Assembly (NCBI GenBank): GCA_000004985.1
Contig: GG738862.1
Reading direction: 5' to 3' (one strand)
DNA: 64,000 nt
Origin: Naegleria gruberi
Lineage: Eukaryota
Positions 54,926 through 55,872 of this stretch are shown piece after piece; position 1 is the stretch's first letter, and every line of letters begins with the position of its first letter. Below the pieces are notes generated by a model. It had not been told where the DNA came from and made no database searches. It was given only the letters and a program-made list of their open reading frames with translations. The translations under genes and the position numbers were made by a program.

Positions 54926-55023
54926 TTTCATATTTTAAATATTTTAAATTCTCATTTATTTCTTTCTTGCTCCAATATTGTTTTTGTAATAAGAAATCTA
55001 AAGATTGGAACTTGTCAAAAAAA

Positions 55024-55287
55024 TTTAAACGTTTATTAATCGTATGAACCCGACGGGTTCGTCTTGATGATATTACGAATATTAAATAATAAATTCTTTC
55101 TTGTTGGGATTGCTTTGTTCATTTCTTGTAACTCTGTGGACACAAATACTTGGCTTGAACACCCTATGCTGGAACCCCGGGTAGTATAGGGTACGGTGAC
55201 TTAACCCGACGTAAGTATTGCGGCAACACACTGTGGTCTCAGGGTCAACAGTGTAGTTACTGGGTGGTACGACATTTTTTTTGAGAC
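55024..55287. mobile_element. 264-bp insertion flanked by perfect 16-bp direct repeats GAACTTGTCAAAAAAA (55008..55023 and 55288..55303); putative non-autonomous retroposon/SINE-like element or element fragment
   Basis: Exact 16-mer duplicated at both borders. The insert is GC-richer than its surroundings, contains the palindrome GAACCCGACGGGTTC, and ends in T8. It sits about 100 nt 3' of tRNA-Lys. Confidence 0.4.
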
Positions 55288-55302
55288 GAACTTGTCAAAA
55301 AA

Positions 55303-55872
55303 ATGCCTCCACCAACTCTCTGCACTCAATGCTCATCACCAAGCAATCGGCTCATCAAAAGAAAAGTTTGTTTCTCGTGTTCAAAAGGTGTCGAGGAAGC
55401 TATTTGTTGTAAATATTGCCAAGTAACAGAAAAATCCGGTTTTACTTGTACACATTGTAAGAGGCTGAAATGTTTTAGTTTACATTTTGGATTTTATTGT
55501 TTTTCTTGTAGAGGAAATTGTTGTTCTGATTGCCAGAGAAAATTTGATCCATATTGCAGAAGCTGTCATTCACCAGTTTGCTTGGATTATTTGGAAAAGG
55601 AAAAGAAATGTAGTCAACCCTATTTCAAAAGAGTTTATTGTTTAAAATTGAAACATTTCTTTACACAAAAATCTCCAAATTGGGTTGCCAGTAAGAAGGA
55701 AAAATCGAATTGGAATGTATATGAACTTGTGTATGGGCACGATGATCATGCAAACTGTATGGTCAATAAGGTGGAGCACAAATTGGAATGTGTTTCATGT
55801 TGGAAAATTAAGAATAACTTGTGGAATGTGTGTGGAAAGATAACTTGGTGTGATCTTGTCATTATTTTTTAA
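55303..55872 (+). CDS. Cysteine-rich (multi-CxxC) zinc-binding-like protein
   Basis: 189-aa ORF with at least 12 CxxC/CxxxC pairs. The ATG lies inside the downstream copy of the 16-bp direct repeat. Confidence 0.45.
   Translation: MPPPTLCTQCSSPSNRLIKRKVCFSCSKGVEEAICCKYCQVTEKSGFTCTHCKRLKCFSLHFGFYCFSCRGNCCSDCQRKFDPYCRSCHSPVCLDYLEKEKKCSQPYFKRVYCLKLKHFFTQKSPNWVASKKEKSNWNVYELVYGHDDHANCMVNKVEHKLECVSCWKIKNNLWNVCGKITWCDLVIIF

Follow-up and report, generated by a model that had tools for sequence, protein, structure and literature searches.

The tRNA-Lys locus and its surroundings

The locus described here lies in a 64-kb window (the whole stretch of DNA that was analysed) of nuclear DNA from Naegleria gruberi NEG-M, which is gene-dense and has a GC content of 33%. 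Host genes of the window code for actin, Ras, a kinase and proteins with F-box, DUF4116, RGS, EF-hand and P450 domains. Reverse transcriptase, endonuclease and transposase domains were not found anywhere in the window by domain searches including Pfam. The RNA genes comprise those of tRNA-Lys, tRNA-Thr, tRNA-Gln and tRNA-Asn as well as one dispersed 5S rRNA gene.

The tRNA-Lys(CTT) gene and the sequence that follows it are flanked by two protein genes with consecutive accessions. Thus, the ORF at 52519-54327 is an exact match to EFC45559/XP_002678303, located on a 502-kb scaffold, and the ORF at 56052-56663 is an exact match to EFC45560/XP_002678304. Between them, the cysteine-rich ORF starting at 55303 is apparently unannotated, no exact record of it having been found. 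This ORF is an orphan, with neither a homologue nor a Pfam family, and of the 210-nt blocks tested in it, only the second has a codon score resembling that of coding DNA.

Between the tRNA-Lys gene and this ORF stand two copies of a direct repeat and, bracketed by them, a segment that is proposed to be an insert (Table 1). The spacer that precedes the left copy contains the T-run terminators of the tRNA-Lys gene (TTTCATATTTT...). From the end of this gene, the start of the repeat is reached after 83 nt and the insertion point after 99 nt.

Table 1. Features of the tRNA-Lys locus, with positions counted in the 64-kb window
Feature	Positions	Strand	Basis or remark
tRNA-Lys(CTT) gene, the Pol III gene adjoining the insertion site	54853-54925	+	ARAGORN; Rfam tRNA, 66.4 bits; folding z -1.95
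AT-rich 82-nt spacer from tRNA-Lys to the left repeat copy	54926-55007		GC 24-33%
Left repeat copy GAACTTGTCAAAAAAAT, proposed target-site duplication	55008-55024	+	Direct-repeat search
Bracketed segment, 263 nt, proposed insert	55025-55287	- (favoured, unproven)	Single copy in the window
AT-rich 57-nt tail after TAA, with AATAAA, containing the palindrome at 55046-55060	55025-55081	-	Direct reading
15-nt palindrome GAACCCGACGGGTTC	55046-55060		Within chance
Open frame of 70 codons without Met	55085-55294	-	From the right junction to TAA at 55084-55082
GC-rich half of the segment	~55125-55278		Strongest GC island of the window, with a peak of 54% GC per 100 nt, the maximum there
T8 run, separated by 5 nt from the right repeat copy	55275-55282	+	Complement of the A7 run found in the repeat
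Right repeat copy GAACTTGTCAAAAAAAT	55288-55304	+	Ends with the A and T of the ATG at 55303
Cysteine-rich ORF, 189 aa, with its start codon abutting the insert	55303-55872	+	A-rich start context typical of the genome

The direct repeat and its expected frequency

The two copies of the repeat are identical, as had been predicted, and extend over 17 nt and not 16. The bracketed segment thus measures 263 nt instead of the 264 bp first proposed. Nearly half of the repeat is made up of A7T, a common motif found ahead of several start codons in the window, and the remaining 9 nt (GAACTTGTC) are complex sequence. No further occurrence of the 16-mer contained in the repeat was found in the window when up to two mismatches were allowed.

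The frequency of such repeats by chance was estimated from 600 second-order Markov simulations of the window, in which exact 17-mers repeated 50-1000 nt apart were counted. Any exact close repeat of this length appeared in 1.3% of the simulated windows and one of similar complexity in 1.2%. At this last rate per 64-kb window, approximately eight such chance repeats are expected per 41-Mb genome. The repeat is therefore unusual without being astronomically so, and a chance origin is possible. In all other close direct repeats of at least 16 nt in the window, the spacing is divisible by three, and the ones that were placed fall within ORFs.

Make-up of the bracketed segment

The segment starts with TTAAACG... 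on the left and finishes with ...TTTGAGAC on the right, so that its termini are TT...AC. Read on the minus strand, its 3' end is ...AATAAACGTTTAA. Runs of at least four A or four T residues are abundant in normal Naegleria spacers, including the 82 nt to the left of the repeat. A maximal stretch of 251 nt devoid of such runs (55024-55274) matches the bracketed segment, and the boundaries of the repeat coincide with the ends of this stretch. Run-free windows of 250 nt represent 1.7% of all windows of that size and 2.7% of the GC-matched ones. Those of the longer run-free stretches in the 64-kb window that could be placed fall inside ORFs.

The composition of the segment is not uniform. The description of the segment as GC-richer applies to its right half only (Table 1), its left part having the low GC content of the flank (24-34% in 100-nt windows), and the composition changes sharply at neither junction. 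The five known RNA genes of the window all form GC islands, and apart from these the GC-rich half of the segment is the strongest island. The palindrome and the T8 run, which had also been pointed out, are indeed present, with neither exceeding what chance would provide: a GC-rich palindrome with arms of 7 nt should occur about once per window, and eight runs of T8 or longer are found on the plus strand of the window. The T8 run is a potential Pol III terminator if the plus strand is transcribed.

On the minus strand, the segment carries an open frame followed by a stop codon and an AT-rich tail in which 8 nt separate the AATAAA hexamer from the left junction. The codon score of this 70-codon frame is -6.6, to be compared with 19.7 +/- 8.7 for host coding DNA, and frames of at least this length arise in 17% of shuffles. 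The frame may possibly be the remnant C-terminal coding part of a source RNA.

Reconstructed empty site and other strains

When the segment and one copy of the repeat are removed in silico, the locus reads as tRNA-Lys, 99 bp and AAAAAAATG-ORF 55303. A similar layout is displayed by a neighbouring locus, in which the tRNA-Asn gene is followed by 106 bp and the AAAAAAATG of EFC45559. The empty junction reconstructed in this way is AAGATTGGAACTTGTCAAAAAAATGCCTCCACC, and the filled junctions are GTCAAAAAAATTTAAACGTTT on the left and TTTTTTTTGAGACGAACTTGTC on the right. From this clean reconstruction, it follows that each copy of the repeat is continuous with one natural flank.

The ENA metagenome assembly ERZ929261 includes a N. 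gruberi-like strain that is 99.4% identical to the reference. The sole contig of this assembly found nearby stops at about position 55971 of the window, approximately 670 bp beyond the right end of the insert, and its final 70 nt have no match to the reference. No contig carrying EFC45559, ORF 55303 or the insertion site was found in ERZ929261. Colinearity is lost at about 56040, i.e., 735 bp past the insert on its right side and 11 nt before the start of EFC45560, and the neighbourhood thus varies between strains. Exact look-ups of ten small ORFs deduced from the filled and the reconstructed empty alleles gave no result. The closest N. lovaniensis homologue of EFC45559 is located in an unrelated neighbourhood devoid of tRNA genes.

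Searches for relatives of the segment

No second copy of the segment was detected in the 64-kb window, either at the DNA or at the peptide level, and no segment-like sequence occurs there downstream of the tRNA-Thr, tRNA-Gln, tRNA-Asn or 5S genes. Similarly, neither a copy nor a parent was found in 22 kb of N. lovaniensis, and three 21-22-mers gave no match among viral contigs. The only result with a 20-mer searched against JGI metagenomes was a chance match of 23 nt to a GC-rich, bacterial-looking sequence. The similarity of the AT-rich half to the downstream flank of tRNA-Lys or to other tRNA flanks is not significant.

Among 1.84 billion representative proteins and in Pfam, two collections from which Naegleria LINE sequences may be missing, nothing homologous to the 70-codon frame was found. 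Considering in addition its host-unlike codon usage, a gene fragment or a processed pseudogene is not supported as the identity of the segment. Poly(A) and microsatellite sequences are absent from both ends of the segment, and a family-specific LINE tail would be recognisable only with a library of Naegleria LINEs.

Known RNA families were searched in Rfam on both strands, and no match to the segment was obtained at the gathering threshold or at E<=10, the latter threshold being applied also to the insert alone. Local alignments of the segment to the four tRNAs and the 5S rRNA of the window score as shuffled sequences do, which argues against a tRNA- or 5S-derived head, and no 7SL-derived head was detected in the segment. 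When the sequence was inspected by eye, A and B boxes were represented on either strand by weak matches only, with several mismatches each. A UGAUGA motif at 55065-55070 recalls a C/D box RNA, yet no CUGA is present in the insert on the same strand. Likewise, the 3' hairpin, considered for an H/ACA RNA, is devoid of a pseudouridylation pocket, and a motif resembling a hammerhead core lacks the catalytic G, both being again judged by eye.

Terminal inverted repeats and a fixed short duplication of about 2-11 bp characterize DNA transposons and MITEs, whereas solo LTRs display TG...CA termini and a duplication of 4-6 bp. Both classes were rejected because no inverted pair joins the left and right termini of the segment, because these termini are TT...AC and not TG...CA, and because the duplication is 17 bp long. 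Such a duplication is too long for the known DNA transposons and LTR elements. Shifting the junctions to obtain solo-LTR or TIR boundaries does not solve the problem, as each shift needs an implausible coincidence of 11-12 nt.

Origin of the segment

A real insertion accompanied by a target-site duplication is favoured because a comparable repeat is expected by chance in only about 1.2% of windows, because the bracketed segment is free of A and T runs, and because its removal leaves a layout like that of the tRNA-Asn locus. The original prediction had taken the repeat for the target-site duplication of a retro-type insertion, and this view is sustained by the rarity of the repeat, the distinct segment, the restored spacer between tRNA and gene and the lack of inverted or LTR ends. 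Copies made by non-LTR elements through target-primed reverse transcription (TPRT) are flanked by target-site duplications of variable length, often from several to about 20 bp. A duplication of 17 bp without inverted or LTR termini thus points to TPRT in preference to a cut-and-paste or LTR mechanism.

That a single TPRT-type insertion placed the 263-bp segment is the reading adopted here, tentatively and with somewhat less than even confidence. In this scenario, a non-coding DNA of 263 bp would have entered the 99-bp spacer between tRNA-Lys(CTT) and the A7-ATG of ORF 55303. The break would have been staggered by 17 bp, and its fill-in would have generated the 17-bp duplication. A Naegleria non-LTR (LINE-type) element would have supplied the endonuclease and the reverse transcriptase for TPRT, and the nicked plus-strand end (...GTCAAAAAAAT-3') would have primed cDNA synthesis with no poly(A) involved. 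We infer an RNA intermediate in minus orientation, of which the insert would be the 3' end, with the open frame reaching the 5' junction and followed by TAA, the AT-rich tail and AATAAA. The 3' end of the copy would then face the tRNA-Lys gene. The source would be either the tail of a 5'-truncated non-LTR retrotransposon or another transcript present as a retrocopy, and the minus-strand anatomy fits both circumstantially.

The resemblance of the segment to non-LTR (LINE) insertions and TPRT retrocopies includes the 17-bp duplication, the lack of inverted or LTR termini and, on the minus strand, the succession of an open frame running to the 5' junction, a stop codon, an AT-rich 3' region and AATAAA. 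The shortness of the copy is a further likeness, as annotated LINE copies in Naegleria average about 400 bp (PMC6125883). Indeed, 190 LINE copies totalling 78 kb, i.e., about 400 bp each, are reported for N. lovaniensis, and repeats represent 5.1% of N. gruberi (PMC6125883). Naegleria genomes carry LINEs mostly as short fragments. In contrast with typical LINE insertions, the segment has no poly(A) or simple-repeat tail and no detectable reverse transcriptase, ORF2 or other protein similarity, and no parent was found for it.

An explanation that dispenses with insertion altogether is rather unlikely. Here, the repeat would have arisen by chance or from low complexity within an ordinary spacer of 377 bp, and the GC-rich patch with its T8 run would be a resident functional element, either an unannotated gene for a small RNA, read by Pol III from the plus strand, or the promoter and 5' UTR of ORF 55303. 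A 5' UTR intron would also be possible, with GTAAGT at 55211 and T8-GAG at 55285. The common A7T motif found before start codons accounts for nearly half of the repeat, and chance alone should produce a few 17-nt repeats per genome. Moreover, the segment shares with small Pol III RNA genes (vault, Y and snoRNA-type) its GC island, the strongest in the window apart from the five known RNA genes, and its position in a cluster of Pol III genes. It also shares a strong T8 run placed after the island, as T4-T6 runs are after the tRNA and 5S genes, and an upstream TATA-like sequence (ATATTAAATAATAAAT) comparable to the elements located at about -20 to -30 of these genes. However, the segment differs from such genes by the lack of an Rfam family, even under permissive filters, of conserved boxes and of a folding signal. 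The folding z-scores of the five known RNA genes used as controls range from -1.8 to -2.6, whereas those of the segment are positive (+0.5 to +1.6 on the plus strand and +1.25 on the minus strand). The GC island and the T8 run are therefore poor evidence for a structured small RNA, the segment folding no better than shuffles. The motifs that define the candidate families, C/D and H/ACA box arrangements included, are missing on inspection by eye. The repeat itself also argues against this explanation, as its 9 nt outside the A7T motif are complex and its boundaries match the ends of the run-free stretch.

Two further explanations account for the repeat by other routes. The capture of a DNA fragment, chromosomal, derived from the rDNA plasmid or foreign, would involve its ligation into a staggered break near the tRNA gene and the fill-in of 17-nt overhangs. 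The missing RNA-type tail at both ends is in line with such an event, and so are the 5 nt (GAGAC) standing between the T8 run and the repeat, which an RNA terminated by Pol III would not carry. tRNA genes are, moreover, fork-pausing and break-prone sites. Overhangs of 17 nt are, however, unusual products of break repair and routine ones of TPRT. No source was found, and a bacterial or vector origin is unsupported because plasmids, E. coli genomes and phages gave no match. DNA capture appears quite improbable. As for an assembly artefact, in which a mis-join or a collapsed repeat in the draft scaffold would have duplicated the 17-mer, the reference is a Sanger draft of 2010 and the related strain is structurally different 735 bp away. 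Nevertheless, a single sequencing read is much longer than the repeat, the sequence at both junctions is unique and no other part of the region is present twice, which makes an artefact extremely improbable.

Relationship to tRNA-targeted elements

In Dictyostelium, tRNA genes are targeted at about 100 bp downstream by the non-LTR element TRE3 and the LTR element Skipper-2 (PMC5006619). TREs possess two ORFs, the second of which encodes an endonuclease (APE), a reverse transcriptase and a zinc finger, and they finish with a poly(A) end (PMC5006619). Their tRNA targeting is described as unique to dictyostelids (PMC5006619). The segment resembles TRE3 and Skipper-2 by its location 99 nt downstream of a tRNA gene in the compact, gene-dense genome of an amoeboid organism, and it resembles TRE3 in particular by the non-LTR type of insertion that its long duplication implies. 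In contrast, both ORFs of the TREs, the domains of ORF2 and the poly(A) are all missing from the segment. Only one of the four tRNA genes of the window is occupied, and Naegleria is a heterolobosean unrelated to dictyostelids. The likeness to TRE3-type targeting put forward in the original prediction is thus retained for the position and lost for the two ORFs and the poly(A), and a single case cannot establish a preference.

The same prediction had also suggested a new small non-autonomous element. Developed further, the segment would be a new SINE-like element, mobilised by a LINE and targeting the region about 100 bp downstream of tRNA genes in convergence with TRE3 and Skipper-2. The 17-nt repeat resembling a target-site duplication is in favour of this proposal, as is the insertion 99 nt past the tRNA end, within the window of about 100 bp used by TRE3 (PMC5006619). 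Compact, gene-dense genomes are also the setting in which tRNA targeting was encountered earlier (PMC5006619). In addition, Pol III could read through either strand, as no run of T4 or longer occurs before the end of the segment. With tRNA-, 5S- and 7SL-derived SINEs, the segment has in common its size range, its flanking duplication, its lack of coding capacity and the absence of internal T4+ runs, whereas it differs from them in having neither a head derived from a Pol III gene nor a tail. Indeed, the segment resembles neither tRNA nor 5S, it matches no Rfam family at E<=10, and the matches to A and B boxes seen by eye are weak on both strands. The lack of a poly(A) or repeat tail contrasts with the poly(A) present on every TRE. 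Furthermore, the segment is present once in 64 kb, with the three remaining tRNA genes and the 5S gene unoccupied, and the window contains no ORF for a reverse transcriptase or an endonuclease. Finally, the published surveys of Naegleria repeats that were consulted list no SINEs. A LINE-mobilised, tRNA-targeting SINE is therefore distinctly unlikely, and the prediction of a new small tRNA-targeted element is not supported in view of the single copy in 64 kb and the lack of a tail and of a detectable Pol III-derived head.

A bolder proposal is that N. gruberi, being related neither to dictyostelids nor to yeasts, independently evolved retroelements integrating about 100 bp downstream of tRNA genes, of which the segment would be a recent, non-autonomous copy without poly(A). 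For such a copy, priming might rely on the pairing of a U-rich 3' end with the A7 run of the nicked target. This proposal is speculative and very improbable.

Significance of the proposed insertion

An ordinary one-off insertion of non-coding DNA is the most likely event at this locus, and a new family of mobile elements is not supported, as nothing shows its existence. Should this most likely reading be true, the segment would be one more small retro-insertion in a genome that has few of them, and its main use would be that of a strain marker. Its importance would be greater if the genome turned out to harbour a whole family of these units concentrated downstream of tRNA genes, which the present evidence does not show. 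The insertion, if true, would have taken place exactly at the start codon of ORF 55303 and would have left this ORF intact.

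Features of the proposed insert

Every one of the window's five known RNA genes was picked out by a simple GC island, defined as at least 50% GC over 100 nt in a genome of 33% GC. The proposed insert, a 263-nt segment (55025-55287) bracketed by an exact 17-nt direct repeat, is marked by another island (Table). Within the insert, GTAAGTAT at 55211-55216 corresponds to a consensus 5' splice-site sequence and pairs with AATACTTG (55145-55152), located 60 nt upstream, to form the base of a predicted hairpin. An acceptor-like T8-GAG stands downstream at 55275-55285. It is conceivable that GTAAGTAT to T8-GAG would delimit a candidate 5' UTR intron of ORF 55303.

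Two JGI metagenome contigs (L001 2513-2535 and L002 1986-2008) contain 23 nt, GGTAGTATAGGGTACGGTGACTT, that match the insert exactly, embedded in a GC-rich, apparently bacterial sequence common to both. This match was judged to be due to chance because the sequences flanking it are unrelated and in view of how big the collection is.

Genes around the proposed insert

The cysteine-rich ORF following the insert displays a typical A7-ATG start context, and its codon usage is coding-like only in the second 210-nt block scored. No homologue turned up among 5.8 billion proteins, nor does the ORF match any Pfam family. This ORF appears to be unannotated in GenBank since the genes on either side of it bear consecutive accessions.

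Same-strand ORFs begin about 100 bp downstream of two tRNA genes of the window, in the case of tRNA-Lys once the insert is taken out. This spacing, together with the start contexts, suggests promoters squeezed into the 3' flank of tRNA genes.

Features of the window by position
Feature	Window position	Strand	Remark
GC islands at known RNA genes	14498-14600, 23538-23660, 26993-27105, 52309-52440, 54822-54949
GC island	1970-2104		Inside an ORF
GC island	25447-25547		Apparently coding
GC island	55125-55278		Within the insert
GC island	59281-59385		Upstream of RNase T2-like gene
Cysteine-rich ORF, 189 aa	55303-55872	+	Many CxxC pairs
tRNA-Asn to EFC45559 start	52413-52518	Same strand	AAAAAAATG start context
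tRNA-Lys to ORF 55303 start, insert removed	54926-55024	Same strand	AAAAAAATG start context
Dispersed 5S rRNA gene	23539-23657	-	Rfam, 105 bits
Dense imperfect in-frame tandem-repeat array	37300-38040	-	Inside ORF 37300-38436

Comparison with a second strain

A contig (L003) of the ENA metagenome assembly ERZ929261 (run ERR1078381, PRJEB11402) represents a second strain, 99.36% identical to the window across 58865-56041. Its final 70 nt (2832-2901, opposite window 55971-56040) have no match anywhere in the window, colinearity breaking 11 nt upstream of the EFC45560 ATG. This divergence reflects either an inter-strain structural difference beside the insert or a chimeric end of the contig; in the second strain the ORF stays in frame across the divergent part.

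Other features of the window

The 5S rRNA gene lies outside any rDNA unit, downstream of an actin gene at a distance of about 130 bp. For ORF 37300-38436, no Pfam family was found; its tandem repeats have periods of 30-102 nt, with units such as TCTTTGGAGCAGCACACTTTCT.
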